From an uncultured Syntrophaceae bacterium (GTDB lineage Bacteria; Desulfobacterota; Syntrophia; Syntrophales; UBA2192): a DNA stretch of 64,000 bases. The first letter of the stretch is position 1; each line of letters starts with the position of its first letter. The notes beneath the pieces are model-generated. The model had not been told where the DNA came from and did no database searches. It was given only the letters and a program-made list of their open reading frames with translations. Where the stretch lies: NCBI GenBank assembly GCA_964547985.1, contig CAZJPV010000005.1, positions 7,755 to 71,754 on the forward strand, in the 5' to 3' direction. Positions 5,308-22,933 of the stretch are shown here, piece by piece. The position numbers and the translations under genes were made by a program.

Positions 5308-6560
5308 TTATTTGTTGATGGGTATGGGCTTTGGTTTATTGATCAGCTCCAGGTTCACCCTTGAGCTGTCCTTCAGGAGGGTTTCCATGGTGAGGAATCC
5401 CTTCCTGTCTTCGTGACAGTTATCGCAGTTGCGGGTCCTTTCCGTCCGCTTCCGGATGTTGTGGATCGGGGCGTCCCAGTAGTTCGGGAGGGCGTCGAAG
5501 TTTGCCTGCTGGATTCCCGCGGGCTTGAAGGTGTCGCGCACCGTGGGGATGATGCGCAGGGTCGTGATGGTCCTGTGATTTCTCGGGCTCGTCCCCAGGA
5601 AGAAACCCGGCTTCGCCTCGGAGTGCCCGTTGTGGCAGTTGTAGCACTGCCGGTATTCGCCGGCCGAGTGGCAGCTGAAGCAGCTGGCCGTCTGACTGTG
5701 CTTGAGGTGGGCCACGCGGGCCGTCAGTTTCGCCTCCCTGCCGCGCTCGTGGCAGTCGGTACAGCGCGGCCGGTCGCGGACCTCCTCCTTGAGAGCGTAA
5801 TCCCTGCCGTCACCGTGGAGCTCGTCCATGGTGTGGCAGTCCATGCACAGCATGCCCTTCTGGTAGTGGACGTCGGCGTTTCCACCGTATTCGCCCGTGT
5901 ACTCGGGGTAGACGCGTCCGCCGTGACAGTAAGCGCAGGTCTTGCCCTCGTCTTTTCGCACGAACTTGTGTTTGTTGATGAGACCCAGGCTCACCCCGGC
6001 GATAGCCGGTGACTTCACGTGGCAGTCTCCGCAGGAGGCATGACAGGCGTTGCAGGACTTTCGGAAGACCGTATCGTCGAAGATTTTTGCCTCTTCGACG
6101 GACATCCTTTTGATCACGCGGTTGCGCTGGCCGATGGTCGTATAATGAAGGGATTTTTTATAGTTCGCGGCGACCTCCTCGTGGCACTCACCGCAGACGG
6201 CCAGGTCACTGGAGGGGCGCTTCACCATCCCCTGGTGGGCGGCGTCCTTGTCATCCGCCTTTTCGTTTCCCTTGTGACAGTACAGGCAGCCCTTCTCGAA
6301 GTGATGGTCCGTTTCGACGAGTTTATGTCGACGAGGAACGTCAGGTGGAAGGTCTCCGCCTTGACCGGCGGAGGCGCCCCTGCTCACCCCTCTGCCTCGC
6401 CCACGGGCATGACGAAGGGCTTGCAGGTCTTCTTGAGCATGGACTCGTCGGTGTGACAGGTCACGCAGCTGCTGGGGTTATTGGCGGTGCTCGACACGGC
6501 CACGAACAGGCACCAGGACAGGAGACCAGCGATGACCGGAATGATGAGCCGTGCCTTCAT
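5308..6560 (-). CDS. Undecaheme c-type cytochrome, interrupted: signal peptide plus heme 1 (6387-6560), in-frame TGA at 6384-6386, then a frame change before heme 2; candidate selenoprotein, recoded gene or pseudogene
   Basis: ORF 5308..6387 has 10 CxxCH motifs but no signal peptide. An unlisted 58-codon ORF from ATG 6560 (MKARLIIPVIAGLLSWCLFVAVSS...CVTCH...GEAEG) supplies the signal peptide and an 11th heme motif, and stops at TGA. See findings for frame and GC3 details. Confidence 0.7.
6354..6373 (-). promoter_or_regulatory. SECIS-like hairpin (or frameshift-stimulating stem-loop) 17 nt downstream of the in-frame TGA
   Basis: On the minus strand: CTCCGCC GGTCAA GGCGGAG. This is a perfect 7-bp stem with a 6-nt loop starting GGUC. 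Confidence 0.45.
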
Positions 6561-6652
6561 GCGTCCTCATGCAGGAAAAAATTTGTGCCTATTTCAGCGT
6601 AGAAGAAAGATTTTTCAACCACCCGGGGTCGGTGGACCAGGGGTTCGCCTTG

Positions 6653-7204
6653 CTACATTTTCTTCACGCTCAGGTTGACGGTGCCCGTGTTCGAGGTGCC
6701 GGAAAGGGGCTTTCCCTTTGCGTCCGTGAGGGGTTTGTCTTCCAGCGTAGTCAGGGTGGCCGTCACGGATTTCTGCCCCGATTCGTCATAGCGGACCATG
6801 AAGGTCCGCACCCATTTTTCTCCGGGCTTGATCGCCTGGACCCGGTAGAACCGGGGCTCCGACTTTCTACCCGAGTCCACGTATTTGAGCCGGATGGGCT
6901 CGGATTTTTCCCTGCCGCAGTTCTCCACGGTCACGATGACGTTAATCCGCTTGCCGGGCCGCATCACGTGCGGACCCGGTCCCTCCAGGTTCAGTTTCTT
7001 TTCACTCTCCTGTATGAAGAATGGTCCGACCTTGACCTTGAGCTTGTTGCTCTCGGGACCCTCCCCGGCAGCGATAACATGTGCGACCATACCGAAGAGA
7101 AAGACCCCGGCCAGCATCAAGACGAGAAGAACTCTTCGCAAGACGCCTCTCCCGGGTGCGAGGTTTGTGGTCATCAATTTACAGAAAATGGTCGGGTTAG
7201 TCAA
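6653..7204 (-). CDS. Secreted or membrane-anchored hypothetical protein, beta-rich (Ig/CARDB-like guess)
   Basis: 183-aa ORF with an N-terminal hydrophobic anchor (VLLVLMLAGVFLFGMVAHVIAA). It is the first gene of the co-directional cytochrome/rhodanese block. No diagnostic motif was found. Confidence 0.55.
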   Translation of the reverse strand: MTNPTIFCKLMTTNLAPGRGVLRRVLLVLMLAGVFLFGMVAHVIAAGEGPESNKLKVKVGPFFIQESEKKLNLEGPGPHVMRPGKRINVIVTVENCGREKSEPIRLKYVDSGRKSEPRFYRVQAIKPGEKWVRTFMVRYDESGQKSVTATLTTLEDKPLTDAKGKPLSGTSNTGTVNLSVKKM

Positions 7205-7242
7205 TAGTATGATAATAGTGTTTCATCCCTTTTCATCGTCGG

Positions 7243-8094
7243 TTATGCCTTTGCCCAGCATTCGATCGCCTTCGGCGCCAGGGCGCGCCCCTGTTCATAG
7301 CCTTCCTGAAGGGCGCGACGGTTCTGGCTGAACCTTGAGACGCGGAAGTTCTGAGGCGGGCATATTTCAATGACTGACACGCCCTCCGGCGGTTTTCGGA
7401 TGAGGGCTACCGATTCATTGTAACGCTGTGCCCGTTTTGCCATCGTCTCCTGCAGCATGGGGCAGCGCCTTATATACCAGCGCATGATGAGTTCAAAGGG
7501 GCCGTTTCGCTTCAGGTAATCTCGGTGCTGCGAACGGATAACCATTATGCGGCGGGCGCCGCGCCGGATGGCCTCACTGACGGGGAGGGAGTCGGCCACG
7601 CCCCCGTCCGTCATCGGACGACCGTCGACGAAGGGGTAACCCCTGTAAAAGAGCGGTATGGAGCTGGAAGCCTTCAGGACGTGCTCGAGATCGCCGGCGC
7701 TCGTAAGCTTGTAGATTGCTTCTCCCGTCTGCACGTCGGTCAGAACCGCTATAAAGGGTTTCCCCCTGGAATAAATCGTTGCAAGGTCAAGACGGATTTC
7801 CCTGATGGTGGTCTCCCAGAGCCAGTCGAGGTCCATGAGGTGGCCGCCGCGGAGAAACCTGGGTATGCTGAGAAACTGCGGTTGCAGGGAGTAGTCCAGG
7901 TAGATCTTCCTGTTTCGCCCGATCATTTCGGCGAGATACGCCGCAAGGTTGGAGGCGCCCGATGAGACGCCGAAGAAAAGGTCGAAAGGGTTGAATCGCG
8001 CTTCCAGAAAGCCGTCCAGAAGCCCCGTGGAGAAGACCCCCCTGAGCGCGCCCCCTTCGACTACAAGAGCTGTGTTGGGTGATGGATGACTCAA
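7243..8094 (-). CDS. Patatin-like phospholipase
   Basis: Oxyanion GGALRG, nucleophile elbow GVSSG and catalytic MTDGG (Asp-Gly-Gly) motifs occur in canonical order. Confidence 0.9.
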   Translation of the reverse strand: MSHPSPNTALVVEGGALRGVFSTGLLDGFLEARFNPFDLFFGVSSGASNLAAYLAEMIGRNRKIYLDYSLQPQFLSIPRFLRGGHLMDLDWLWETTIREIRLDLATIYSRGKPFIAVLTDVQTGEAIYKLTSAGDLEHVLKASSSIPLFYRGYPFVDGRPMTDGGVADSLPVSEAIRRGARRIMVIRSQHRDYLKRNGPFELIMRWYIRRCPMLQETMAKRAQRYNESVALIRKPPEGVSVIEICPPQNFRVSRFSQNRRALQEGYEQGRALAPKAIECWAKA

Positions 8095-8350
8095 TTGCCC
8101 GGCTCCAGGACATCCAGGGCCACCATGTGGCGGACCTCAGTCACAATGATGTGTCTTTTATCACATTTTGAGCCGGGATGCCTTTGAAAGGGGCCGTCAA
8201 TGCCACCCTCTTATGACCCGCCGAAATCCATTGGCTTTTCGCCGTAATCCCTGATAAATAGACCCAAATCAATCATCTGCCCGGCAGTGAAGAGAGACGC
8301 GCGGATATTCGGCTGCCGGAGCAAAAAAGCGAAATGGAGAGGGGTAGAGT

Positions 8351-8782
8351 ATGGGATCGAAACAGAAAAAGACGCAACTGGGGCGGAAGGAATATTTCGA
8401 ACGGAAGCTGAAAGAGCGCCTGTCTTTCCTGTCTGAGAAGAAGACCGAACCTGCTGAAATCGAGAAGGACCCCCGTGCCAAGAACCTGCGCGCCAATATC
8501 CGGGCCGTTGATGCAAGACTGCAGGCGATAGCCAAGATCGAACAGCGGACGGCGGAAATGGCGAAGGCCAAGACGGAAAAGGCCGCGGCCGCCCTGAAGG
8601 CCAAGGAAGCAGGCGAAGAAAAGGAGAAGAAAGAAAAGGGAAAGGAAAAGAAGGAGAAGGGAGCAGAAAAGAAAGAAAAGAAAGAGAAGAAGGAGAAGGA
8701 GCCCAAGGCCCCGGAAGAAGGGAAGGAACAAAAGAAAAAGGAAAAGAAAGAGGTAAAGGAAGAAAAGGGGGAAAAGGAATAA
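8351..8782 (+). CDS. Lys/Glu-rich low-complexity protein (structured N-terminal half, KEKKEK tail)
   Basis: 143-aa ORF. The GAA/AAG-rich DNA generates F/S/L-rich antisense shadow ORFs (8269..8731). Confidence 0.55.
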   Translation: MGSKQKKTQLGRKEYFERKLKERLSFLSEKKTEPAEIEKDPRAKNLRANIRAVDARLQAIAKIEQRTAEMAKAKTEKAAAALKAKEAGEEKEKKEKGKEKKEKGAEKKEKKEKKEKEPKAPEEGKEQKKKEKKEVKEEKGEKE

Positions 8783-8829
8783 CCCGAGTCTAACTGGCGG
8801 ACCGCTTTGAATTTTGAGCTTTAAAGTAT

Positions 8830-9231
8830 GTGCGGTTGAGTTTTGGGGGTTCTCAATCTGTGGTCAATGAAAGGGGGGTCCTATACGAAATCCCGCTGAT
8901 GCTTCTGGCGTACGGCGTGCTTTGCGCGGCTGCGATCCCCTGGCTTCATCGTTCTGTCACCGTGCATCCGACACTCATCCTCATCCCCTTCCTGCTGATC
9001 GGTCTGGGTGTGGCCTGTTTCCTCGGCAGGGCCATCAGCATCCCGAGGGTTTACGTGCTTGGAGCCCCCTCGTGCTTCTGGGTTTTTATCCTGTTATCAT
9101 TCCTCACGCTGCCTCTCATGTCGATCTACATTGCTCCGTGGTTCAACACGGCAATGCTCCTGGGGCAGACGTACCTGTCGTTTCGTGCCGACCTGTGGTT
9201 CGCAGAAAGAGAATATCATAAGAAGAAATAG
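8830..9231 (+). CDS. Small polytopic membrane protein, hypothetical
   Basis: 133-aa ORF with about four hydrophobic helices. No motif was recognised. Confidence 0.5.
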   Translation: MRLSFGGSQSVVNERGVLYEIPLMLLAYGVLCAAAIPWLHRSVTVHPTLILIPFLLIGLGVACFLGRAISIPRVYVLGAPSCFWVFILLSFLTLPLMSIYIAPWFNTAMLLGQTYLSFRADLWFAEREYHKKK

Positions 9232-9271
9232 AAAACCCCCCTATGACCCTTTGCCTTTGACGGAGGCCCTT

Positions 9272-11065
9272 ATGTTGAAGCATTTGATAAGCCTGATCGC
9301 TCTGGCGACCATGTTGGCATTTACATACGCAGAAGCGGCATGGATCGGTATCGAAATAAGGGACAAAAGGTCCGATGACGGGAAATTACAGGGAATCGAG
9401 GTGGTTGACGTCGATCAGCGCGGGCCCGCCGCCCAGGCGGGCTTGAGAAAGGGAGACGTCATCGTATTCGTGGATGGAAGGATTGCGGGGTCTACCGAGT
9501 CCTTCGTGAAGATGGCCGCGGACGCGCCGAAAGGTCAATTGCTTCATGTGACGGTGTTGAGAAACGGCGAGAGGGTCAACCATAAAATCACCCTCGCCGA
9601 GACACCGAAGTGGCTCACATATGTCCGAAAAGGCCGAGAACAGGCCGCAAAGCAAAACTTTGACGAGGCCGAAAGATCTTTCACAAAGAGCATCGAGATC
9701 GACCCCGGGATTGAAGAGGCCTATTTCGGAAGGGCCGGTGTTTATATGAACAAAAAACAGTATGACGCGGCCATTGCTGATTACACGAAGTACATTGAAC
9801 GCAGGCCTTCCAGCTGGGATGGTTACGGCAATCGCGGGATGGCTTACGAAAGAAAGGGTCAGAGGGATGATGCGATTCGTGATTACACGAAAGCGATCGA
9901 TTTAAAACCAAATGCTCCCTACTCGGCCAAGATCCGTTGCGACCGCGGCCATCTCTTCTACGAGCAGGGTGCCTACGACCGCGCCATCGAGGACTTCAAC
10001 AATGCCCTCAAAATTGACCCGAAATATACCCCTGCCTACGAAATGCGCGGGAACGCCTATGCGAAAAAGAAAGATTGGTCCCGCGCGAAGGCCGACCACG
10101 AAACGGCGGCGAAGCTCTACCTCGACCAGGGGGTCCAGCTTGCCAAAAAGGGGAATCACGACGGCGCCATACGTTTCTTCGGAATGGGTATCCGGCTCGA
10201 CACGTCGCATACCGCCTCTCTTTACTACAACAGGGGTCTTGTCCAGGAGCAGAAAGGGGACTACCAACGGTCCGTCGCCGATTACACGGCGGCCATACAG
10301 AAAAACCCCTCGTATACCGATGCTTACCGGAGGCGGGGCACCCTGTATGCCGAAAAAATGGGCGATAAGGCAAAGGCTAACCACGACTGGGAAAAGGCCA
10401 CGAGCCTCGAAAGCGCAGGGACGGGAAGCCGGGCGACGACAGGGCTGGTCTGTCCGTCGCCGATTTTCGGGAAGCTCCTCTGGAGCGGAAACACACCTAG
10501 GTGCCTGGAAGGCTTCGCACTGATCCCCGGCTGGCGGTTCAAGCAGGAAAGCACCCCCTGGGTCTGCGCGAAGTGCACCCCGAACTGTATTTTTGTAGAG
10601 GAACCGGACAGAACCTACATCTGCGCGAGTACCTCCGCAGGCGGCCGTGCGGCGGCCGGCTCAGCGGCGAGCCGTTCCGGTGGCGATTCGCTCCTGGGCG
10701 AGACATGGGACCCCTCCGACAAGAAGTCGAAAGGGGTAACGGGCGGTATGGAGGGCGCACCCCGCTCGGAGAGCGAAGTCCGTCAGGCGCTCGAAAACAT
10801 GGGCTTCAGAGTCGTACAGCCGGGGACGATCGGGGCTTTCGATGGATACTGGATCGAGATTGCGGATCCCGCGAAAACGGCCCGCTTCGGCTTCAGCGAG
10901 AGGAGACAGGCGCGAGCCACGGCAAAAGGGCAGGAAACAACCTCGACAATCGGCTGCTGGACGGAACGGAAGGGAGAGCAGTTTATCATCTGGATTGACG
11001 GGCGCGATGTCAGCATCCGTGACGAATCAAAACTTCCGCCCTGGGTGAAACTCTATTCGAAATAA
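9272..11065 (+). CDS. Secreted PDZ-TPR protein with a Cys-rich C-terminal region
   Basis: GGAGG sits at 9263-9267 before ATG 9272. Signal peptide MLKHLISLIALATMLAFTYAEA. PDZ domain (GIEVVDVDQRGPAAQAGLRKGDVIVFVDG). At least six TPR units (AYFGRAGVYMNKKQYDAAIADYTKYIE and others). The track start at 9008 overlaps the previous gene. Confidence 0.85.
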   Translation: MLKHLISLIALATMLAFTYAEAAWIGIEIRDKRSDDGKLQGIEVVDVDQRGPAAQAGLRKGDVIVFVDGRIAGSTESFVKMAADAPKGQLLHVTVLRNGERVNHKITLAETPKWLTYVRKGREQAAKQNFDEAERSFTKSIEIDPGIEEAYFGRAGVYMNKKQYDAAIADYTKYIERRPSSWDGYGNRGMAYERKGQRDDAIRDYTKAIDLKPNAPYSAKIRCDRGHLFYEQGAYDRAIEDFNNALKIDPKYTPAYEMRGNAYAKKKDWSRAKADHETAAKLYLDQGVQLAKKGNHDGAIRFFGMGIRLDTSHTASLYYNRGLVQEQKGDYQRSVADYTAAIQKNPSYTDAYRRRGTLYAEKMGDKAKANHDWEKATSLESAGTGSRATTGLVCPSPIFGKLLWSGNTPRCLEGFALIPGWRFKQESTPWVCAKCTPNCIFVEEPDRTYICASTSAGGRAAAGSAASRSGGDSLLGETWDPSDKKSKGVTGGMEGAPRSESEVRQALENMGFRVVQPGTIGAFDGYWIEIADPAKTARFGFSERRQARATAKGQETTSTIGCWTERKGEQFIIWIDGRDVSIRDESKLPPWVKLYSK

Positions 11066-11136
11066 TCCGCCGCGGGCCAAGGGCTGTCTCCGAAATAGTC
11101 CGCAGTACAATACCCGCGATGTCTGCAGCGATAAGA

Positions 11137-13506
11137 TCAGTATCCCCACCGGCCCGTGCAGTATGAAGTCCTGGTGCTTGGACCGCAAGAAATTGTTCCA
11201 CCGCCAGTAGGCCTGGATCCGGTGGACTTCAGAGTTCCTTTCAGGGTGCAGGATTTCATCTCAGCCCAGCACACACTATCCCGATAAATATAACATTCGG
11301 CCTTCGCGTTTAGTTGTCCCGATTCATCGACCTGACCCCTGATGCTGTAAATGGAAGACTGGAGATAATTGTAGAATTCCCCGTCCACCGTCCCATCACC
11401 GTGAATATTCATCTGGATGTGTCCCCCGGTCGCTACCGTGTTGCATGCAACCGATTTTGTCCCCGTTGGGTCCTTGATCGTTCCCTTGAGCTCGCTCCAG
11501 CCTCCGGAAAACGTACCAACAGGGTATTTTGGGGTTGTGCCGCCCGGTTTCGTTGTAGACGGAGGTTTGGATGAAGCTGTCGGTTTTTTGCCGGTCGGTT
11601 TTGTGGGCTGGGTCGGTTGGGTCGGTTGACTCGCACCGGCCGCGGCTGCCGCAGCGCCCAGAACCGCCTGTCCCAGCGCCTCACCTATCCTCCGCCCCGT
11701 TTCATAGTACTGTTTGTCCTTTTCCGACTTTTCCTTTCCTTTCGGCTCCTTTTCTTCAGCGGCCAGGCGGGCAAGCTGGCTCTTTGAACAGCCGCTCGCG
11801 TCCACCTGCTCGCTTGCAAGAAGGAGCGTGTAGGCGCACCGATCCTTGTCATCCGTGACCCCATCGCCGTCGGAATCGAGCTGGCTTGGCGCACAGCCAC
11901 TGGCGTCCACGAAGAGTTCTTTCGCATCCGTTCCGGGACAGATGTCTGCGTTGTCCTTTACACCATCATGATCCGAATCAAGCTGGCTTGGCGCGCAGCC
12001 TCTGTCATTCACGCTGGCCCTTTCTTCTGCTTTTGTCCCGGGGCAGTCATCCGCTTCATCCTTGACCCCGTCACCGTCCAAATCAAGCTGTCTTGGCGCA
12101 CAGCCACTGGCATCCACGAATTTCCGGTCTTCTGCTTTTGTCCCGGGGCAGTTGTCCAACCTGTCGACCACGCCGTCACCGTCGCTGTCGAGCTCAGGCT
12201 TTTCTTTTTCTTCTTTGGCGGTTTCGCCGGGTTTCTTGTCAACGGATTTTTTGATTTTCTCCAGTCTTTTGTTCAAAAGACTCAACTCATATTCAATCCG
12301 CTTTCTTGCCTCGGGGTCGGTCGTTGCCTTCCACTGACGGTCGAGGTCTGTGATCCTGTCCCCAATCTTTTCGGAAGGAAGGTTCAAGACGCGCTCTTCG
12401 GCTCCCTTTTGCTCAGCTTTTTGGAGGTCCGACTGTTTTTTTGACAGGAGTTCTATTTCGTACTCGATTCTTTTTCTTGTGTCGGAGTCTGTCGTCGTTT
12501 TCCGCAGACGGTCGAGTTCTGTAATCCTTTTGTTAATCTTGTCGGGCTGAAGGTTCCGTGCACGTTCTTCTGTCTGCCTGAGGCGTATTTCCTCCGCGCG
12601 CCTGTGAATCTCCTGTTTGTCCTTTTCTGAAAGCTGGCGGGAAATTGGCAAAGATTCCAGACGCCAGCCATAGTCCCTTCTTTCTTTGTCCAGGTATAAA
12701 ATACGATCAACATCGATACCCTTAGCATACGGTGTGTTTCTAAGCAGCATCAGGTCTGTACGCAACCTTCTGCAATCGTTTTCCGTCTTTTCCAGATAGT
12801 CCGTTATCTTCTGTGAAGCTGCGTCCGCTGTTTTGTCAACGATGGGTTTTCCGTATTTATCGTAGCCATATGCTCCTCCGACGGCTCCCGCAACAGCGCC
12901 GACCCCCCCACCCACGACGGCACCGGGAGGGCCGCCCAGGGCACCCCCAACTACGGCGCCTCCCTTGGCTCCCGCCCAGGCTCCTGCAGTCGCGGCCACT
13001 CCACTCAGGGAATCATTCGCAAGGGCCTGGGCCGCGCCCGTTCCATCTCCGTAGATCAGGGATACGCCGGCCTCCTCATAAGCCAGGGCTGAGTCGCCAT
13101 AATCCAGATACTTTCCCGCAGTCTCGAGTGTTTTGGCATACTCATGAATATTCCCCGGGAGTTGCCTGTAGATCTTATGGACGTTTTCCGGGTGAGTTTC
13201 CTTTATAAGGTTTTTGACTGTCTCCCGAGATTGGTAACGGCCGGCTGCATCCTTGATGGCATCACCCGCGCTGTAGGCGGGTCCCAGCCATTCATTCATC
13301 CCGTCCAACGTGTCCATAACTCCATCCAAGGTGGTCGAAGGGAGCGGCTGCAATTTTCCATCAGGGGTCCTGCCTCGCAGATCCCTTTGTTGACTGAACC
13401 CGCTACCCGATGCGGATGATATACCAATGGCAAGCAAGCCGATACTGACACAGGCAAGCAGTATCACCAGATTGTGAAATCTTATGGTCAGGACAGGATA
13501 TTTCAT
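11137..13506 (-). CDS. Large secreted protein: glycine-zipper segment, duplicated coiled coil, thrombospondin-type-3 Ca-binding repeats, P/T linker and C-terminal beta domain
   Basis: 789 aa. Glycine zipper GAVVGGALGGPPGAVVGGGVGAVAGAVGG. Repeated DxDGDGVxDxxDxCPGT...VDxxGC modules. QPTQPTQPTKPT linker. Confidence 0.8.
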   Translation of the reverse strand: MKYPVLTIRFHNLVILLACVSIGLLAIGISSASGSGFSQQRDLRGRTPDGKLQPLPSTTLDGVMDTLDGMNEWLGPAYSAGDAIKDAAGRYQSRETVKNLIKETHPENVHKIYRQLPGNIHEYAKTLETAGKYLDYGDSALAYEEAGVSLIYGDGTGAAQALANDSLSGVAATAGAWAGAKGGAVVGGALGGPPGAVVGGGVGAVAGAVGGAYGYDKYGKPIVDKTADAASQKITDYLEKTENDCRRLRTDLMLLRNTPYAKGIDVDRILYLDKERRDYGWRLESLPISRQLSEKDKQEIHRRAEEIRLRQTEERARNLQPDKINKRITELDRLRKTTTDSDTRKRIEYEIELLSKKQSDLQKAEQKGAEERVLNLPSEKIGDRITDLDRQWKATTDPEARKRIEYELSLLNKRLEKIKKSVDKKPGETAKEEKEKPELDSDGDGVVDRLDNCPGTKAEDRKFVDASGCAPRQLDLDGDGVKDEADDCPGTKAEERASVNDRGCAPSQLDSDHDGVKDNADICPGTDAKELFVDASGCAPSQLDSDGDGVTDDKDRCAYTLLLASEQVDASGCSKSQLARLAAEEKEPKGKEKSEKDKQYYETGRRIGEALGQAVLGAAAAAAGASQPTQPTQPTKPTGKKPTASSKPPSTTKPGGTTPKYPVGTFSGGWSELKGTIKDPTGTKSVACNTVATGGHIQMNIHGDGTVDGEFYNYLQSSIYSIRGQVDESGQLNAKAECYIYRDSVCWAEMKSCTLKGTLKSTGSRPTGGGTISCGPSTRTSYCTGRWGY
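11780..12200 (-). repeat. Tandem coding repeats (about 99-105 bp units) encoding TSP3-like calcium-binding modules
   Basis: The string gacggcgatgg/gacggtgacgg (DGDG) recurs with conserved CPGT and DASGC spacing four to five times. Confidence 0.75.
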
Positions 13507-14609: not shown

Positions 14610-15112
14610 ACCCGCTCCTTCAGGTGAGTAGTCGTAAAATACCAGATTGAAAGGGCTAATGCAAAGGATATTAGCCGCTAAGAATTTGTGCCAGGCTTTG
14701 AGTATTTGATATTGCTCGTAGTGAGAAGCACAAGCTGTCTATAAACTTCTTCCTGGGCTCGCTAAAAAATTTTGTTCCAGATGCAAGATTACAATCATTC
14801 ATCGGCAAAAATAATTTCTTTTTTTGACCTGCAATTCGATCCTTGACATCATTTTTCCAATCCATTACAAAATAAACGTTGTCTTGTCGGTCTCTAACAA
14901 ACCAGTCAGCTTATACATGATGGGGAGCCTTGAGCGAGCTATGAAACCCTGCTTTCGGTTGAAGGCGGGGTTTTTATAATTCAGAATGCAGGGGGGACTA
15001 TAAAAAATCTTCTTTGGTCGGTTATCATTTCCTTTACAGTTTTTGGTTCCGGCTGCTCAGTTTTATGGCCGCATAACAACCTGATTTGAAAAATATAGAA
15101 GGAAATGCAAAA

Positions 15113-15496
15113 ATGACGGGCTATGTTGGAAACATCGAGAAACAGACATTGAAGAACAATTATTTCAGAAAGGTTTTGTTCACTGCTAAGAATGCTCAAC
15201 TGGTTGTAATGTGCCTTCAACGCGGAGAGGAAATTGGAGACGAGGCTCACCATGATATAGACCAGTTCTTCAGGCTTGAACAGGGTGAGGCGAAATTCAT
15301 CTTCAATAAAAAAGAGGAACATGTAGTCCATGATGGCGAGGCGGTTATTGTCACAGCAGGTACCTTTCACAACGTGATAAACACCGGAAGGGGACGGCTG
15401 AAGCTGTATACTATATATTCACCGCCAAACCACCCTGACGGCACGGTTCACAAGACCAAAGCCGAAGCAGATAAAGCTGAAGAGGAGCATCGTTGA
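15113..15496 (+). CDS. Cupin-domain protein
   Basis: Cupin motifs (GEEIGDEAHHDIDQFFRLEQGEA ... GTFHNVINTG). The track start at 15086 is TTG, so ATG 15113 is preferred. Confidence 0.85.
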   Translation: MTGYVGNIEKQTLKNNYFRKVLFTAKNAQLVVMCLQRGEEIGDEAHHDIDQFFRLEQGEAKFIFNKKEEHVVHDGEAVIVTAGTFHNVINTGRGRLKLYTIYSPPNHPDGTVHKTKAEADKAEEEHR

Positions 15497-15574
15497 AGCT
15501 GCTTGTGAATGTTATTGGTAGATAGGCAGGCTGACTGAGTACGTCTGATGGAAACCAGGGAAAGGAGGTATTCA

Positions 15575-16009
15575 ATGTTTCATAGAGGAAGCAACAACAT
15601 TTTATTCGCATTAGCTGTCATTGCCGGGGTTCTTCTCATGAATGCCTGTGCGGCAATGAACCAGCAGACAAACAAAGGAGATACCACCATGGAAGCTGTC
15701 CGAATTTCGCCGCAGGATACTTATCAGCAGGTGACATCAGGAAGAGCTATATTAGTCTGTTCCTATGATAAGAAAACATGCAGCAAGATGATGTTAGAGG
15801 GTGCCATTACGCGTGAAGAGTTTCAGTCGAAACTGCCCAGTATTTCCAAGAGCCAGCCAATTATTTTTTATTGTGCCTGACACGAGGAACACACCTCTGC
15901 CGGTCAGGCAGTGAAATATACGAAAATGGGATATACCAATGTTAAGGCGCTGCACGGCGGCGTTGAGGCTTGGAAAAAGGCAGGGTATAAACTTGTAGGC
16001 GATAAATAA
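15575..16009 (+). CDS. Single-domain rhodanese lipoprotein with an in-frame TGA (15878-15880) in the catalytic loop; candidate selenoprotein
   Basis: AGGAGG lies 7 nt before ATG 15575, and the lipobox is VLLMNAC. The track ORF stops at IIFYCA-TGA. The same frame continues HEEHTSAGQAVKYTKMGYTNVKALHGGVEAWKKAGYKLVGDK-TAA (16007-16009). That stretch is the conserved C-terminal part of a rhodanese domain, and a terminator follows. Confidence 0.7.
15897..15911 (+). promoter_or_regulatory. SECIS-like hairpin downstream of the rhodanese TGA
   Basis: CTGCC GGTCA GGCAG: perfect 5-bp stem with loop GGUCA. The loop starts 21 nt after the TGA. Confidence 0.45.
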
Positions 16010-16050
16010 GAAGCGACCTGGTTGCTAACCGTTGGGTCAGGAAAGAAAAA

Positions 16051-16084
16051 AGGCAGAGCCGTTTCTGGCTCTGCCTTTCTGTTC
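16051..16084. terminator. Bidirectional rho-independent terminator between the convergent rhodanese and cspA genes
   Basis: 10-bp stem aggcagagcc/ggctctgcct (16051-16060 / 16067-16076). An A-run lies upstream and TTCTGTT downstream. Confidence 0.75.
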
Positions 16085-16152
16085 AAATTAAAGAGGCACA
16101 TCAGAGCATGAAAAAAACAGATTGAAGTACCTCTTCCTTACCGCTCATGCGC

Positions 16153-16353
16153 TTATAAAAGTTTCACGTTCTCGGCTGCCGGGCCTTTCTGACCCTGCAC
16201 AACGTCGAAGCTGACACGCTGGCCTTCACTAAGCGTCTTGAAACCAGCGGCTTGAATAGAAGTGTGATGAACGAACAGATCACCACCGTCATCTTTTTCG
16301 ATGAACCCGAAGCCTTTCTTGTCGTTGAACCATTTTACTTTGCCTTCTGACAT
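16153..16353 (-). CDS. cspA: Cold-shock protein (CspA family)
   Basis: [33 protein letters not shown] carries the RNP1 (KGFGFI) and RNP2 (VFVHH-like) motifs. The AGGAGG spacing fits the second ATG (16353). Confidence 0.93.
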
Positions 16354-16851
16354 CGCTTGCATCCTCCTTTCATAGAATTCTATTTAAGTCGGATTTCCAC
16401 AATGACAGAAAGAAAAAGGCCACCGAGACTCTAAAGAGCATGATGGCCAGCCTTTGCACTTCAAAATGTCTTAATCCATACTTATTTAGTGCTGGAAATT
16501 TACGATGTCTCTTATCGAAAGTCAAGGATTATTCTTTAATTATTTCAATAACTTTTATTATGAGATTCAGGAGCTTTTGCAGGGGAAGGGGGGAGGCACA
16601 CGGCGGCAAATCCACTATTGGGGCAGACCATAGTCCGAAAGTTGATAGATAGATGGAGTTTGGCGATCACAGGAAATCGTTGAGGTTCCCGTGAGTGCAA
16701 AATGACCCCGCTGCTTCTACATAAATAAAAATATATTATCTTGACTTCATGCAATTTGAGAGTAGCATATATATAAATCAAAGTAATTGACACTGGATCT
16801 GCAGCTTATCTCTCCTTTCCCCTTATAGGGGTCATAATTTGGTAATTGAAA

Positions 16852-16881
16852 CCCTGTCTTTTACAGAAGACGGGGTTTTTT
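16852..16881 (+). terminator. Orphan rho-independent terminator, possibly the 3' end of a small RNA
   Basis: 9-bp stem (ccctgtctt / aagacgggg, one G-U pair) with a 6-nt loop, followed by TTTTTT. No credible plus-strand CDS ends upstream. Confidence 0.5.
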
Positions 16882-17030
16882 GTTTCTTCTTAAAAGCTAT
16901 TTTTACAGTTGAACGTGATCAACACGCTAGGGCGTGGCACCAACGTCTCCTATTTACTCTGAACATACGGCTTTGAGGAACAGTTCCTAACGCGATTAAC
17001 GCAAATCTCTCAGCAGAAAGAAGGGCCAGG

Positions 17031-17345
17031 ATGAAGGTACATTTAATCGATAAATTCAATGATTTTAACAATCTGCATGATAATGTATGGGAATGCGGAT
17101 GGTGGAAATTGAAAGAAGACAAGGCTCAAGAGCTCGTCGGGAGTGAAATTTATTTTCACAAAAAGCGATTGGAACCGTCTTTTTATGGCGGGACGATAGT
17201 GGGATACAGAATAGAGCAGGAGGGACTACACCAGGGGGGCACTGTTTTCGAATTCCAGTATAGTCACGCATCCAGAAATGTCAGGACGAATAAATATGGC
17301 TGGTCCAGAGAAATGAAGATCATAGAAGAACCGGAACAGAAATAG
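17031..17345 (+). CDS. Hypothetical protein (104 aa), low-GC island
   Basis: ATG-started ORF with balanced composition. No motif was recognised. Confidence 0.45.
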   Translation: MKVHLIDKFNDFNNLHDNVWECGWWKLKEDKAQELVGSEIYFHKKRLEPSFYGGTIVGYRIEQEGLHQGGTVFEFQYSHASRNVRTNKYGWSREMKIIEEPEQK

Positions 17346-17453
17346 CCGCCGGAACGGATGCCGGGTTACCCAGGAGACTGATCGGCAAGGCCAGGCATCC
17401 ACAATAATATAGCGAACCTTTTTCAGGAATAATGACACGAGGTACAAAAGTTT

Positions 17454-17660
17454 ATGGCTGTTGTTTTGTCGGGCTACGAAAATGAGACGATGGTTCATCT
17501 GGATTCCGCAGGGATATCAACGGGGGTGCAAGAGAGATTACCCGAAAAAGTGTCCCGGGTTTTTGAGACGATCCTTGAGGAACTACAGATGAACGTCAGT
17601 ACAAGGAAATATCGAGACCTTTACGTGAGCGAAGGTCTCTTGTGGGGCACGAAAAGGTAA
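17454..17660 (+). CDS. Hypothetical small protein (68 aa)
   Basis: ORF only. Confidence 0.3.
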   Translation: MAVVLSGYENETMVHLDSAGISTGVQERLPEKVSRVFETILEELQMNVSTRKYRDLYVSEGLLWGTKR

Positions 17661-17681
17661 TCCAGCGGGAAGGGAAATACC

Positions 17682-17873
17682 ATGATTAAAATTTCTCAGG
17701 GACTCCCGATGAGGAAACTAAATATGGAATCCGCAATCATCAGCGCCTTCAATCGTTATTTCGAGGGTGGAAGCGCTGGAGAAAAGGCGGGAATACTTAA
17801 GGCGTCTCTCATGGATGCCCAGACAAAATATTTTCAGAAGAAAATCTGGTCAGTCCCGACGCTTCAAAAGTGA
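17682..17873 (+). CDS. Hypothetical small protein (63 aa)
   Basis: ORF only. Confidence 0.3.
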   Translation: MIKISQGLPMRKLNMESAIISAFNRYFEGGSAGEKAGILKASLMDAQTKYFQKKIWSVPTLQK

Positions 17874-17981
17874 TGGACCGGCCTCTTGCAGAAAGGTTGC
17901 GTGTGGGGAGACGGTCTATACCCTCATAGTCACTGGCAGTGTTTTTCAAAATCATCATGTCGGAAACAAGGATAAAAAGCT

Positions 17982-18338
17982 ATGACTGAAGACTTACTTG
18001 ATTACTGGGTTCGACTCATCAAGCCACTCTTCCCGATGAATGCCTGGATTGTCTCGAGCTTGTCAGATGACGATTATCTAATACAAATCGACTGGAACCT
18101 CGAAAAGGAGCCGCGTCGACCAAACAATCGATCAAAGAAAATACAGATAACCATCTCAGCGGAAGCTATTGAAAATTATCTCGATAAGGGCAAGAAAGAA
18201 CGTGAAGTGTCTGACCGCGCAATGATGAAGTTGATCTTGGAGCGGTATAACCATGTGATTCCGGATCGAAACGCTCATGCGTCCCAATCTGCATCCACAG
18301 AAAAGTGGTTAATTTCAAGTGATGTGCTCAATGCATAA
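17982..18338 (+). CDS. Hypothetical protein (118 aa)
   Basis: ORF with plausible composition. No motif was recognised. Confidence 0.45.
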   Translation: MTEDLLDYWVRLIKPLFPMNAWIVSSLSDDDYLIQIDWNLEKEPRRPNNRSKKIQITISAEAIENYLDKGKKEREVSDRAMMKLILERYNHVIPDRNAHASQSASTEKWLISSDVLNA

Positions 18339-18552
18339 TAGTCATTCATGGAAAGGCAAAAAACCGTTTGGCCTCTTTCGTCTATAGGGTCTGTTTGGTC
18401 CATCCGGATTATTCAAGGGTGTTTAAATCCATCTCATTCTTTCCGGGTCTTTCCAGGAGAAGATTCCGGAATTCCGTGGAAGACTTCATTATCGATGTCT
18501 GAAGAGATGAAAAGAGATACATCCCCACCTATACGTCCCCCCGGGAACTGTC

Positions 18553-19023
18553 TTACCTGACGTTACTATCCGGAAGTTGCACCAGCACCACTTCGCCTTT
18601 CGCGCGGATCTCTCCCTCTGCAGATAAAGCAACACTGACAATCGCTTTTCGATTTGTTCTTTCTTTGACCCTTCCCCTCAGCTCCAGGACCTTTCCCGTC
18701 GGCGTTGGTTTTAGAAAATCGACCTTTAACGATACGGAAACGAAGCGGGAAACCGGTCGGTCATCCAGAGATAAGCCCTCGTCACGCAATTTAGCTGCCG
18801 CTGCAGTGGCAGAACTGTGACAATCTATCAATGAGGCGATAAGCCCCCCATAGATGGAGCCGGGAACACCACCCGTGCAGTAAAGCCCGGGTGTGTAATG
18901 ACAGACGCTTTCCTCACCATCCCAGTAGCTCTTAATGTGCAGTCCCTCCTGATTCAGACGGCCGCAACCGTAGCAATGTGCAAATGCATCTGGATAGTAA
19001 TCTTGAAAGGCTTTAACCTTCAT
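18553..19023 (-). CDS. PaaI/hotdog-fold thioesterase with an N-terminal Cys pair
   Basis: MKVKAFQDYYPDAFAHCYGCGRLN... plus GGVPGSIYGGLIASLIDCH is typical of the PaaI/thioesterase superfamily. The upstream 33 codons of the track ORF look non-coding. Confidence 0.75.
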   Translation of the reverse strand: MKVKAFQDYYPDAFAHCYGCGRLNQEGLHIKSYWDGEESVCHYTPGLYCTGGVPGSIYGGLIASLIDCHSSATAAAAKLRDEGLSLDDRPVSRFVSVSLKVDFLKPTPTGKVLELRGRVKERTNRKAIVSVALSAEGEIRAKGEVVLVQLPDSNVR

Positions 19024-19380
19024 ACTTGACTCCTTTTCCAGTGTGTGGCTTTTTTTACTCGAGAACCGGCGCCCGTGTCCGGACGCCCCGTGCATCATAG
19101 AGAATATCGGGCTTGCCATCAAGGTGTAATTGGGTCTGGGCGTATTATGGGGCCAGACTCAATCATTGCCAATTGATGGGTTTTCTCTCAGCCTCGTTCC
19201 ATGGCAAGGAAACCGAGAATCGCAACTGAAGGCACTCCATAACAGCATAGTCCGGATGTTAAGGCGGGGTCAAACTTGAATCTTGACAAAAACGATGGTA
19301 TTCTGGAATTCAATTATTCTAATGCCGGTATCGGCAGGGCGCGGCGAGTATAAGGTGGAAAATCTGTAGAGGATAAAGAT

Positions 19381-19911
19381 TTGGTCTCAACCATTCTGAC
19401 ACGGATGTTTCTCATCCGATCCTGGATCGAGCGGACGGTGGCCGCCCACCAGAAAGAGGCGAGACCCGTCGCCGAGGTCATCGAGGCCTGCGGCTTTCAA
19501 CGCCTGCCTGATTACTTCGGCGCGGCATTCCTTGACCGCGTCCAGTGCGTGTCAGTCGAACGGATCCCCTTGCCGCCGCTTACTTCCAGGGGGCTCAGGT
19601 CCCTCGGGGGCATCAGAACGGCAAGAAGGTTTTCCGGCATCACGTACGGCGACACGTACTTCGTCGATCGGAAACGCGAGCAGAGCGAATCCTTGCACTT
19701 CCACGAGCTGATCCACGCGGTGCAGTGGGATTGCCTCGGTTTTGAGAAGTTTCTCCGGGCCTATGGCGTGGGGCTGGTGCGAAACGGTTATGCCCGAAAC
19801 CCCCTCGAAATCATGGCTTACACCCACCAGCGCCGGTTCGAGACCGACCTCATTCCTTATCCCGCCGAGGCTGCAGTCCGTGCAGAGCTGGGATCGAAGT
19901 ACTCGAAATAG
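19381..19911 (+). CDS. Hypothetical protein with an HExxH motif (possible zincin-like)
   Basis: FHELIHAVQW is the only recognisable motif. The ORF has a TTG start and the true start is uncertain. Confidence 0.45.
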   Translation: MVSTILTRMFLIRSWIERTVAAHQKEARPVAEVIEACGFQRLPDYFGAAFLDRVQCVSVERIPLPPLTSRGLRSLGGIRTARRFSGITYGDTYFVDRKREQSESLHFHELIHAVQWDCLGFEKFLRAYGVGLVRNGYARNPLEIMAYTHQRRFETDLIPYPAEAAVRAELGSKYSK

Positions 19912-20010
19912 AATGAGGGAAATCTCGGAGGCCGGCTTTGCTCATTTGATATCAGAGAAGAAATTACAGGGGATCCTCTTGTAACCACACCCCGCAAATC
20001 CCCAGTGTTT

Positions 20011-20081
20011 CTCCACAGGGTAAACAATCCACCAATATCATTGACATCTTTGCTGTAATTTATTATCCATCAAACGCTGAT
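20011..20081 (+). repeat. Copy 1 of an imperfect direct repeat of about 70 bp with a promoter-like core (ATATCATTGACATCTT-N6-AATTTATTATC)
   Basis: Core 20035-20050 is identical to 21264-21279, and AATTTATTATC 20057-20067 is identical to 21286-21296. The flanks (AAACAAT, ATCA, CTGAT) are also shared. Confidence 0.75.
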
Positions 20082-20284
20082 TCTCACCTGCGTTTCAGTG
20101 TTACGAACGGGCAGAGAAAGCTGAAATATGTGAACCCCGTCAGCTTTTTACTCATCTCATGTATCAAAAATAGAAAGTTGCAGTTTGGGGCTAGGGTTTA
20201 AAACGATCCAGGTGTATCATCTACGGGCGATCGGAATATAAAAGGTGCTTAAAGCAATGGAAGGGAAAAGCCTGTTTGAAGAAA

Positions 20285-21118
20285 ATGATTAAGGCGGGAA
20301 AAAGCGTAAAGAACGAGCACTCCGTTGCCGGCGCAAAAGAGCCCCCGGAAATCTATTACGAGAAAGCCGAATACGCCCTTAAACTTTTAAAGGGTGATTG
20401 CATCGATATTTTGAATAACCATTTCGAAGAAAATACCTTCGACATGATTTTTGCCGACCCCCCTTATTTTCTCTCCAATGGGGGGGTAACCTGTCATGCC
20501 GGGAAAATGGTTTCTGTAGATAAAGGCGGCTGGGATAAATCTAAAGGCGTGGTGGAAAATCATAGATTCAATATTGAATGGTTAAAGGCATGCCGAAGAG
20601 TCCTGAAGCCGAATGGGACGATCTGGATATCCGGAACGACGCATGTTATTTATTCGATTGGTTTTGCGCTGCAGAGCCTGGGCTATAAGATATTGAATGA
20701 TATCGTGTGGTATAAACCAAATGCGTCACCGAACCTTTCCTGCAGGTATTTTACTCATTCCACAGAAATTGTTTTGTGGGCAACTAAAAGCGAAGAAAGT
20801 AAACATCATTTTGATTATCGATTAATGAAAGAGTTGAACAGGGGAAAGCAGATGAGGAACCTCTGGGAAATTCGTCCGCCGTCTGCTTCAGAAAAACATT
20901 TTGGCAAACACCCCACACAAAAACCGTTAGAGCTTTTGAAACGAATTATTCTTGCTTCAACTGAAGCAGGAAGTCTTGTTCTGGATCCATTTTGCGGGAG
21001 TTCGACAACCGGCGTTGCCTGTGCTTTATTGGGCAGGCGATATGTCGGGATTGATCTGGAAGAACGATATCTCGATTTATCAAGAAGAAGGCTTGAAGAG
21101 GTGAGAAACCAGCCGTAA
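20285..21118 (+). CDS. Beta-class DNA methyltransferase (N6-adenine or N4-cytosine), apparently orphan
   Basis: DPPY motif (MIFADPPYF) lies N-terminal and the AdoMet motif (VLDPFCGSSTTGVA) C-terminal. No adjacent endonuclease-like ORF was found. Confidence 0.9.
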   Translation: MIKAGKSVKNEHSVAGAKEPPEIYYEKAEYALKLLKGDCIDILNNHFEENTFDMIFADPPYFLSNGGVTCHAGKMVSVDKGGWDKSKGVVENHRFNIEWLKACRRVLKPNGTIWISGTTHVIYSIGFALQSLGYKILNDIVWYKPNASPNLSCRYFTHSTEIVLWATKSEESKHHFDYRLMKELNRGKQMRNLWEIRPPSASEKHFGKHPTQKPLELLKRIILASTEAGSLVLDPFCGSSTTGVACALLGRRYVGIDLEERYLDLSRRRLEEVRNQP

Positions 21119-21242
21119 TGATTTAATACCCAAGCATCTTGAATCTACCCAATTTATAGACCTCAGGCTTAGACCATTTGATATTTTAGAGAAGAAGGTC
21201 CAGAAAACCTTTCATAACCATTCACCGAATCTTCAGTTTTCC

Positions 21243-21310
21243 CCTCCAAGAAACAATTTATCTATATCATTGACATCTTAGCCACAATTTATTATCGATC
21301 AGTGTCTGAT
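21243..21310 (+). repeat. Copy 2 of the promoter-like direct repeat, immediately upstream of the CoA-transferase operon
   Basis: See copy 1. TTGACA sits at 21270-21275. Confidence 0.75.
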
Positions 21311-21351
21311 CAGGCAATAGTGCAATGAAAGTAAATGTGAGGTCGATACCT

Positions 21352-22206
21352 ATGAAAGAGAAACTAATGACGGCAATCGAAGCGGCGCGTTTCGTTGAAA
21401 ACGGGAGTCACCTGGGTGTCGGTGCCGGTATGGCGATGAACCCCATGCCCGTCGTGAGGGAGGTCATTAAAAGGGATGTCAGGGGACTTACACTGACCCC
21501 CGTCGTCACCGGGGGCTATGTGGCGGATCTTCTCATTGGTGCCGGATGCGTTGAGACGGTCCAGTTTCCCCAGATTGTCATGGATGAGTTCGGTCTTGCG
21601 CCCAAGTTCAGAAAAAAGGCGGAAAAGGGCGAGCTCAAGTACCTGGAAACCATGTGAGCCTCCCTCCTCCTCGGGCTCCAGGCTGGGGCCTACAATCTCC
21701 CCTTCATTCCCGTCCTTGGCCTTCTGGGGACGGACTACATGAAAATACGGCCTGACCTCAAGACAATGAAAGACCCCTATTCAGGCCATGAATACGTTGT
21801 GATTCCCCCGATTATTCCCGACGTGGCCATTATCCATGCCACAAAGGGAGACCGCTTCGGGGGTGTCACGACCTTCAGTATGCGAAATGACTTGCTCCTG
21901 GCCCGGGCCGCAAAGAAAACCATTGCCGTCATCGAGGAACTTCTCGAGCCGGATGAGGTCCTGCCGGCACGTAACGAGGTCTATATTGCCCCCGTTCATG
22001 TCGATGCCGTCGTGCTTGCACCGCGGGGCGCGCATCCCACGGGTTGTCCCGGAAAATACGACGTTGACGGGGCCCACATCAAAGCGTACATGGCGGCGGC
22101 AAAGGATGACAAGTCTTTCAGGCAATACCTGGACACCTATATCTACGGGCCGAAGGACCATAACGATTATCTCAAGAAAGTGGGGTTGGGAGATTATGGA
22201 AAATAA
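21352..22206 (+). CDS. Family-I CoA-transferase subunit A (glutaconate-CoA-transferase GctA-like) with an in-frame TGA at 21655-21657
   Basis: Track ORFs 21325..21657 and 21739..22206 are in the same frame, separated only by one TGA. Read-through gives ...GELKYLETM-x-ASLLLGLQAGAYNLPFIPVLGLLGTDYMKIRPDLK.... This stretch is contiguous with the recalled GctA pattern (LGLPFLPV; DAVVLAPxGAHP later). Confidence 0.7.
21673..21691 (+). promoter_or_regulatory. Hairpin downstream of the CoA-transferase TGA (weaker SECIS candidate)
   Basis: GGGCUCC AGGCU GGGGCCU: 7 pairs including two G-U, with loop AGGCU starting 22 nt after the TGA. Confidence 0.3.
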
Positions 22207-22933
22207 GGCGACGGATCCTGTCGTGAGAATGATAGTGGCCATTTCGAAGATTCTCAAGAATGGCGAGTGGGTTGCCGCGGGGACGCTCTCCCCGATTCCG
22301 GTGGCAGGCTGTATCCTGGCGAAACACACCCATGCGCCGGACATCACGTCCATTTTTTTCGGTGACCCGGCCGACCGAATGGGGGATGGCCTCTTTGAGC
22401 TCTTCGGGCTCGTCCAGAAGGGAAAGATTGACGTTTTCTTCCTTTCCGGGGCGCAGATCGATCAGCAGGGGAACATCAACCTGATCTGCATCGGGGATTA
22501 TATGAAGCCGAAGGTCAGGCTTCCAGGGGGCGCGGCCTCCAACATGCTCTACGCCATGAGCAGGCGGACCATTCTCTTCACCACCACCCACACCAGGAAT
22601 CTTTTCGTTCAAAAGGCCGATTTTGTGAACGCAACCGCCTTCGATGGCGCGGTCAAGACACCCTGGAGGCGTGGGGGGTTGAGCCATGTGGTCACTCCGC
22701 TTGGCATCATGAGGTTCGACACCCAGATAAATAAAATCGTCCTGGACTCCGTCTTTCCCGGCATCTCTGTTGACACCGCCGTGGAGAACACGGGATTCGA
22801 CCTGGGCATAGGAAAGAGAACCATCCCGACCATCGAGCCGGTGCGTGAGGAAGAATTGAGGATTCTCAAAGAGGTTGTGGCTAAAGAGATGAGGGCTATT
22901 TACCCTGTCTTTACTGAAAAGCTCTGGGGCTAA
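22196..22933 (+). CDS. Family-I CoA-transferase subunit B (GctB-like)
   Basis: MENKATDPVVRMIVAISKILKNGEWVAAGTLSPIPVAGC...GGAASN. It overlaps the end of subunit A by 11 nt. The first 120 codons of track ORF 21836..22933 are an out-of-frame shadow of subunit A. Confidence 0.85.
   Translation: MENKATDPVVRMIVAISKILKNGEWVAAGTLSPIPVAGCILAKHTHAPDITSIFFGDPADRMGDGLFELFGLVQKGKIDVFFLSGAQIDQQGNINLICIGDYMKPKVRLPGGAASNMLYAMSRRTILFTTTHTRNLFVQKADFVNATAFDGAVKTPWRRGGLSHVVTPLGIMRFDTQINKIVLDSVFPGISVDTAVENTGFDLGIGKRTIPTIEPVREEELRILKEVVAKEMRAIYPVFTEKLWG

Follow-up and report, generated by a model that had tools for sequence, protein, structure and literature searches.

The general mechanism and geometry of the bacterial selenocysteine insertion sequence (SECIS), a hairpin that follows an in-frame UGA codon, have been described (PMC9312934). 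Among the proteins and enzymes closest to those treated here, MccSep/ExtKL of Geobacter sulfurreducens is a pentahaem polysulfide reductase that contains selenocysteine (Sec) (PMC13510729), a rhodanese with a CxU motif (form 3) is listed as a selenoprotein family in a 2026 review (PMC13188914), and IpdAB is a ring-cleaving retro-Claisen hydrolase (cholesterol) with a CoA-transferase fold (PMC6678751). Here we describe three UGA codons, each followed by a hairpin, in a 64,000-nucleotide (nt) stretch of contig CAZJPV010000005.1 from an uncultured Syntrophaceae bacterium (Syntrophales, Desulfobacterota), called the window below. They lie in genes for an 11-haem cytochrome c (site 1), an exported rhodanese (site 2) and the alpha subunit of an enzyme with a CoA-transferase fold (site 3). 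The distances from UGA to loop (17, 21 and 22 nt) fit the bacterial geometry (PMC9312934), and the lineage is rich in selenoproteins, with 19 in Syntrophus aciditrophicus (PMC1794560).

Comparison with relatives makes it very probable that all three codons are decoded as Sec by the standard bacterial SECIS/SelB route. The hairpins, which start 10–16 nt after the UGA, would be bound as SECIS elements by the elongation factor SelB, and SelB would bring Sec-tRNA(Sec) to the ribosome at the UGA in place of a release factor. The case is built from UGA conservation, constraint on the hairpins at the RNA level, pairing of Cys with Sec among homologues and operon context; SelB dependence, the actual insertion of Sec and all enzymatic functions we infer. 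The mechanism would be ordinary, and any novelty may lie in the two protein families at sites 1 and 3.

UGA codons and hairpins in three protein families

The genes, codons and hairpins in question are the following (positions within the window).

5308..6560, minus strand: cytochrome c gene of site 1; exported (signal peptide), 11 CXXCH motifs, Pfam Cytochrome_C7, c3_2 and MtrC/MtrF domain
6386..6384, minus strand: UGA of site 1, predicted Sec59, context GEAEG-U-AGAPPPVKAE, shortly after haem 1 (G-U-A-G); 17 nt to the loop GGUCAA (6366..6361)
6354..6373, minus strand: SECIS-like hairpin of site 1, arms CUCCGCC / GGCGGAG, coding for PPPVKAE; the 47-nt fold has -22.6 kcal/mol
15575..16009 (alternative start 15548), plus strand: gene of site 2 for an exported single-domain rhodanese, motif IIFYCA-U-HEEHTSAGQA
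15878..15880, plus strand: UGA of site 2, predicted Sec two residues after the active-site Cys (C-A-U); 21 nt to the loop GGUCA (15902..15906)
15897..15911, plus strand: SECIS-like hairpin of site 2, arms CUGCC / GGCAG, coding for part of SAGQA
21352..22206 (alternative start 21325), plus strand: gene of site 3 for a GctA/IpdA-like alpha subunit, Pfam CoA_trans PF01144, 78.6 bits
21655..21657, plus strand: UGA of site 3, predicted Sec111 counted from 21325, context LETM-U-ASLLLGLQAG; 22 nt to the loop AGGCU (21680..21684)
21673..21691, plus strand: hairpin of site 3, GGGCUCC / AGGCU / GGGGCCU
22196..22933, plus strand: beta subunit of the same enzyme, PDB matches 1POI_B and 6CO6_B

An earlier note on this DNA had reported three TGA codons with hairpins, and all are present as it described them; it had missed that site 1 is on the minus strand and that the rest of this cytochrome ORF lies in another frame. 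Its suggestion that the hairpins are real SECIS elements placing Sec in a cytochrome, a rhodanese and a CoA-transferase is well supported by the relatives, in which the codon is TGA in 79 of 80, 6 of 6 and 52 of 52 cases, respectively, together with constraint on the hairpins and with Cys homologues for sites 1 and 3. At sites 2 and 3 the in-frame UGA lies inside a gene with homology on both sides in the window itself. The same is seen for site 1 in its relatives; in the window copy, homology across the UGA requires a frame repair ~60 nt downstream.

The cytochrome loci were collected by scanning one genome per species. Among the 80 species representatives, which include Syntrophales, Smithella, Nitrospirota, Syntrophorhabdales, Geobacteraceae and Desulfuromonadales for the Sec form, the only codon other than TGA is CGA (Arg) in L039, where a stem pair is also broken. 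The TGA is identical across eight independent assemblies of the window organism. Most database homologues are ~345 amino acids (aa) long and start right after the TGA position, and are therefore a signature of gene callers halting at an in-frame stop. Conservation 3' of the UGA is at the nucleotide level (TGA GCN GGN GCN CCU CCG CCN GUN NNG GCG GAR), with a third-position entropy of 0–0.37 bit at four stem codons versus 1.2–1.9 bit in the loop and at fourfold-degenerate codons nearby. Six of the seven stem pairs are kept in 82–100% of 77 distinct sequences, and pair 19–28 is found as CG (48), UG (11) and GC (4). The loop of this family follows N-G-U-Y-N-N, with only the G-U at positions 2 and 3 invariant.

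More distant full-length cytochromes, recovered by an exhaustive profile search, have Cys at the aligned position in at least nine cases, or 12 with a shift of one column, within the motif G-C-G-G..P; the superfamily as a whole therefore includes a Sec/Cys pair. Two core-family proteins read Trp (W) at the position, and for one of them, P0053 (L166), the DNA was checked and has TGA. An AlphaFold2 model of P0053 from a 57-sequence alignment was poor (mean predicted local distance difference test score 56.7, and below 50 around the Sec), and a Foldseek search of the PDB with this model gave no match. The CGA of L039 and the TCA (Ser) of another locus, L167, are each one base away from TGA; L167 has a nearly intact hairpin but no adjoining rhodanese.

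At site 3 the CoA_trans fold is found in both subunits (PF01144; 1POI_A and 1POI_B). The closest PDB chains to alpha are 1POI_A (E = 6e-30), 6CO6_A (3e-27) and 5MZW_A, and the alignments to 1POI_A and 6CO6_A span the whole length. Every one of the 52 metagenomic relatives with the motif (60–94% identity) has TGA at this codon, and one peptide expected in the family reads LLETI-U-PALLLGLQAGVHNLPFIPVLGF. The closest full-length homologues, P0121–P0124 (64–66% identity), have Cys at the TGA position, as do P0146, P0160 and P0182, and ~45 closer matches are C-terminal fragments that begin right after it. Glu, in a D-E motif, aligns with the position in P0168, P0172 and P0177 alone, all of them distant homologues. 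In the hairpin, 93% of stem cells are paired versus at most 59% in slid controls. Pair 21–35, in which the wobble base of a Gly codon pairs with the middle base of a Val or Ala codon, is GC in 19 sequences, AU in 15, GU in 2 and unpaired in none. The codons CUC CAG GCU, which form part of the stem and the loop, have zero synonymous variation (0 bit) among 40 distinct sequences, while adjacent Leu codons vary. The AGGCU loop is invariant and possibly forms a GGC triloop closed by A-U.

The predicted Sec of alpha aligns with the residue that differs between PDB entries 6CO6 (EMDEGMV) and 6COJ (EMDAGMV), an E to A change at what we take to be the catalytic Glu105 of IpdA, mutated by the depositors. 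The D-E-G motif of the IpdA type is thus not kept in the window protein, where Sec would replace the Glu. The beta gene adjoins alpha in 51 of 58 loci, and its product has [Y/F]GD after an APD....-type segment in the window and in 51 relatives; the HMMER alignment to GctB stops just before that residue, where the catalytic Glu of GctB, in an ESG motif, presumably stands. This difference from GctB suggests that the enzyme is not a conventional CoA-transferase. Because Sec occupies the position of the IpdA catalytic Glu and beta apparently lacks the canonical transferase Glu, we infer that Sec would be the catalytic residue of the alpha/beta enzyme. No selenoprotein with a CoA-transferase fold was found in the 2026 catalogue (PMC13188914) or in our literature searches.

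Site 2 is a diverged member of the catalogued CxU rhodanese type and not a strict equivalog. Its protein matches Pfam PF00581 (37.2 bits), and its best NCBIfam match is NF041203, 'rhodanese_LYCAU, rhodanese-related (seleno)protein', at 63.5 bits when Cys is used in place of U. Ten assemblies of the window organism share an identical TGA, and the codon is also TGA in all six relatives at 53–66% identity, three of which had been entered in databases with W. Each of the 16 database homologues stops at ...FYCA or continues with W, and none of these 16 has a Cys form. The stem of L161 (CAGCC...GGCUG) shows a compensatory change from U-A to A-U. The GGUCA loop, which the earlier note had regarded as shared by sites 1 and 2, is invariant in the five rhodanese relatives that reach it, but the cytochrome family retains only its G-U and site 3 has AGGCU in its place.

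Each family thus has a conserved motif with a hairpin, GEG-U-AGAPPPV at site 1, FYCA-U at site 2 and ET[IM]-U-P[AG]LLLGLQAG at site 3, and these three combinations could be used as annotation rules. In the sources searched, public copies of the genes are split at the TGA or have the codon mistranslated as W; most relatives are truncated or split, and many are labelled hypothetical protein. The W-reading entries P0248, P0255 and P0256 (L160–L162) and P0053 have TGA in the DNA and lie on short contigs, and the same probably applies to P0012. Presumably they were called under a code in which TGA is Trp, and such entries mask selenoproteins. A 553,664-base-pair contig of another Syntrophales metagenome-assembled genome carries both a Sec cytochrome (L088, 55% identity) and a Sec CoA-transferase subunit (L105, 89% identity), so the two families co-occur beyond the window organism. 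The Sec cytochrome is also encoded on the complete chromosomes OY970063.1 and OY760142.1. Database homologues likewise assign the window organism to Syntrophales.

Chance, read-through and the case for selenocysteine

From the window alone, the combination of TGA and hairpin is not clearly above chance. Hairpins with a GGUCA loop and a stem of at least 4 base pairs number 4 versus 3.6 expected, simulated windows contain ~0.8 GGUCA hairpins each with a TGA 12–26 nt upstream, and the folds of sites 1, 2 and 3 have z-scores of -2.6, -1.2 and +0.7, respectively. Single-sequence folding statistics are too weak to decide anything here, and the significance of the sites comes from conservation in relatives and not from window statistics. 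The census also bears on a possibility raised in the earlier note, that the hairpin is a generic repeat; its frequency shows that it is not. A TGA also precedes the fourth GGUCA hairpin (52718), by 16 nt, but it is not in the reading frame of the local gene. A MAFFT alignment (A8) of the two GGUCA hairpins, whose loops have 6 and 5 nt, was not consistent with their structure, and no covariance model was obtained.

One could accordingly propose that the three codons are the ordinary stops of split or decaying genes next to GC-rich hairpins, or that TGA encodes Trp or Gly. The expectation of ~0.8 TGA-preceded GGUCA hairpins per shuffled window and the weak z-scores of sites 2 and 3 are compatible with this, and some database entries do read W at these codons. 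Those W entries have TGA in their DNA, however, and the TGA is retained in 79 of 80, 52 of 52 and 6 of 6 relatives, flanked on either side by open frames with homology. TGA is also the normal stop of 10 of the 31 long open reading frames (ORFs) in the window, among them the ACAD and cupin genes that had been named earlier as examples; the codon is therefore not reassigned, as the earlier note had argued. The comparative sequences already refute an origin by chance or artefact, to which we attach next to no probability. A scan of 139 same-frame ORF pairs for further TGA-interrupted genes yielded none that is credible beyond sites 1–3, and the candidates at 24841, 25273, 19709 and 41788 are explained by overlapping genes or by translations that look non-coding.

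Several results weigh against decoding as Sec. Rfam gave no SECIS match, neither for the whole window at gathering thresholds nor for three 201-nt slices at E values up to 10, where only noise was returned. The 64-kb window contains no selA, selB or selD and no tRNA-Sec; ARAGORN found no tRNA in it at all. Covariation is thin, with one or two informative pairs per hairpin among related sequences, and the hairpins overlap conserved peptide motifs. Non-Sec members of the core cytochrome family have Arg (CGA), Ser (TCA), Ala, Tyr or Pro at the position and not Cys, which is unusual for a catalytic Sec. The site 2 protein scores below the NF041203 cut-off (63.5 versus 115 bits), and the cytochrome gene of the window is itself frameshifted (see below).

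Some of these results would also suit an explanation in which the UGA and hairpin form a programmed stop-codon read-through or termination-control element that does not depend on SelB, with near-cognate decoding stimulated by the hairpin or with both the truncated and the full-length product functional. The tolerance of the core cytochrome position for Arg, Ser, Ala, Tyr and Pro, the lack of visible Sec machinery within the window, the missing Rfam match and a site 3 loop without the adjacent G-U common to sites 1 and 2 could all be read in this way. Against it stand the Cys found in many distant cytochromes and in the nearest CoA-transferase homologues without UGA, the membership of site 2 in a curated selenoprotein type, a geometry that is that of bacterial SECIS elements and the wealth of selenoproteins in the host lineage. 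Bacteria are not known to have established read-through elements of this type. We consider such read-through improbable and retain decoding as Sec as the explanation for the three families.

The frameshifted cytochrome gene and neighbouring genes

The cytochrome gene of the window is split over two reading frames, with the downstream ORF (5308..6387) in the other frame. The lesion is as follows.

6321..6326, minus strand: frameshift, window GAC ATA AA- CTC versus GAC AGA AAG CTC in relatives; a 1-nt deletion in the alignment to L022–L028

The deletion lies ~60 nt downstream of the UGA and puts 10 of the 11 haem motifs out of frame. It is present, with identical sequence, in eight independent assemblies, and is therefore a real mutation and not an assembly error. 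Relatives at 81–88% identity have a single frame throughout. The window copy is probably a recent pseudogene in which the UGA and the SECIS-like hairpin are intact, and we lean, by a modest degree, towards regarding site 1 here as a relic that yields at most a one-haem peptide of ~112 aa and no functional selenoprotein. This is favored by the loss of frame for 10 haem motifs that all close relatives keep in frame, by the identical lesion in the eight assemblies and by the single-frame relatives, but the downstream frame of 359 codons is fully open and 88% identical to relatives, so that the lesion would have to be very recent or tolerated. The frame would be restored by a -1 ribosomal slip of low efficiency, which is a minor possibility: C-AUA-AAC is half of a canonical slippery heptamer, sharing the A-AAC half of the coronavirus heptamer U-UUA-AAC. 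The proposal in the earlier note that site 1 carries Sec in the window organism thus stands for the family, in which UGA and hairpin are conserved, but probably not for this frameshifted copy. Such a relic would involve just the local copy and does not conflict with Sec in the cytochrome family.

The cytochrome gene heads a string of genes on the minus strand (1439–6560), of which the others are these.

4407..5291, minus strand: two-domain periplasmic rhodanese of 294 aa with a signal peptide and the active site CDTGK; follows the Sec cytochrome gene immediately
2278..4341, minus strand: multihaem cytochrome c, 687 aa (Pfam); next gene in the conserved operon
1439..2212, minus strand: second rhodanese, 257 aa, Pfam Rhodanese (92 bits); end of the gene string

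A rhodanese of the 294-aa type adjoins the cytochrome in 64 of 80 loci. Within flanks of only 3 kb, a cytochrome of the 687-aa type is found in at least 45 of 80 loci and the second rhodanese in 10 of 80. This arrangement suggests a sulfur or selenium redox module, in which the rhodanese would deliver sulfane sulfur, polysulfide or a selenium substrate, the Sec would attack it and the haems would supply electrons. The role of the cytochrome is most likely the reduction of sulfane sulfur, polysulfide or selenium compounds, analogous to that of MccSep. Genes for system II cytochrome c biogenesis (ResB-like and CcsA-like; 49776–52060, plus strand) fit the many multihaem cytochromes encoded in the window.

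Around site 3 only the alpha/beta pair is conserved in position. A gene for an N6/N4 DNA methyltransferase (20276–21118) lies upstream of the pair in the window and downstream of it in the 94%-identical L102, and the ACAD gene is a neighbor in just 2 of 58 loci.

Other redox genes of the window were also inspected. In agreement with the earlier note, the FdhA-like protein carries Cys (HCARLCH) where Sec is usual. TGA ends the HdrA-like gene, after which an open stretch of 147 codons (41344–41790, minus strand) continues in the same frame, with a translation that is rich in Arg and Pro and looks non-coding; this region holds two overlapping ORFs, and the putative MvhD-like assignment has no Pfam match at 1e-5. 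A 437-aa ORF (35205–36518, minus strand) that adjoins a 438-aa polyferredoxin matches aldehyde:ferredoxin oxidoreductase in its N-terminal domain only; it may be a truncated or variant form. A full-length aldehyde:ferredoxin oxidoreductase (611 aa) is encoded at 45617–47452.

Comparison with described selenoproteins and CoA-transferase-fold enzymes

The three hairpins resemble the SECIS elements of E. coli fdhF and fdnG in following an in-frame UGA directly on its 3' side, in lying within the coding region, in placing the loop 17–22 nt on and in having a G in the first two loop positions. The bSECISearch model describes an apical loop ~16–37 nt from the UGA with a G in the first two loop positions, and the three sites have distances of 17, 21 and 22 nt and the loops GGUCAA, GGUCA and AGGCU. 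The fdhF loop carries G-U, and so do sites 1 and 2. They differ from the fdhF/fdnG type in giving no Rfam match, in the lack of an adjacent G-U at site 3 and in having no evident bulged U.

The earlier note had placed Sec in less usual families, which is appropriate for sites 1 and 3, both in families that appear to be uncatalogued, but less so in other respects: the CxU rhodanese is catalogued, and Sec multihaem cytochromes are known from MccSep (PMC13510729). The site 2 protein shares with the NF041203 type a single rhodanese domain and an active-site Cys followed by Sec two residues on (FYCAU here versus LYCAU), and differs in its score under the cut-off and in the N-terminal export signal of the window protein. 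Prokaryotic selenoproteins have been found mostly through searches for Cys/Sec pairs and with curated models (PMC13188914), and families such as those of sites 1 and 3 would point to gaps in the catalogue.

Taking these two families together, we tentatively propose, with somewhat less than even confidence, an 11-haem cytochrome whose Sec works with rhodaneses and a second cytochrome as a sulfur, polysulfide or selenium reductase, and the first selenoenzyme with a CoA-transferase fold. Within this same joint and tentative proposal, Sec would stand in for the catalytic carboxylate of an IpdA-like alpha subunit and give selenoester or selenolate chemistry on an acyl-CoA.

The site 3 enzyme has in common with IpdAB and GctAB its two-subunit alpha/beta organization and class I CoA-transferase fold, and its Sec/Cys position is that of the IpdA residue mutated from Glu to Ala. 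It differs in having Sec or Cys in place of the alpha Glu and apparently also in beta, with Tyr or Phe where GctB has its catalytic Glu. The enzyme perhaps acts in anaerobic alicyclic or aromatic degradation, in ring or C-C cleavage. A catalytic Sec would be a novel solution, and a new catalytic type, for this well-studied superfamily.

For the site 1 cytochrome, the NCBIfam model of ExtKL (NF040886) gave no match at E values up to 0.01, and neither did the models of the GSU2204 and OTR octahaem families, which are in the 2026 catalogue (PMC13188914). A PDB profile search with the window protein returned generic cytochrome motif matches only, and no conserved non-CXXCH Cys comparable to C239 of MccSep was seen. 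MccSep has 5 haems, a His/Cys-ligated haem 2 and its Sec, U325, in a D-G-U-P loop of a C-terminal Ig-like domain, whereas the window protein has 11 CXXCH motifs and predicted Sec59. Architecture and the lack of sequence similarity rule out membership of the site 1 protein in the MccSep family. MccSep is nevertheless its closest functional analogue, though not a homologue. Each is a periplasmic multihaem cytochrome c whose single Sec comes from a UGA followed by a SECIS-like hairpin, both occur in Desulfobacterota and Nitrospirota, both are linked to rhodanese-like proteins (ExtH in Geobacter) and both have database entries that are split at the UGA. If the proposed reading is correct, the cytochrome would be a second, independently evolved multihaem selenoenzyme beside MccSep, widespread in syntrophs and Nitrospirota, and a selenoprotein linked to rhodaneses suggests that syntrophic Desulfobacterota and Nitrospirota have a redox module for sulfur or selenium that depends on selenium and would parallel the recently solved MccSep.

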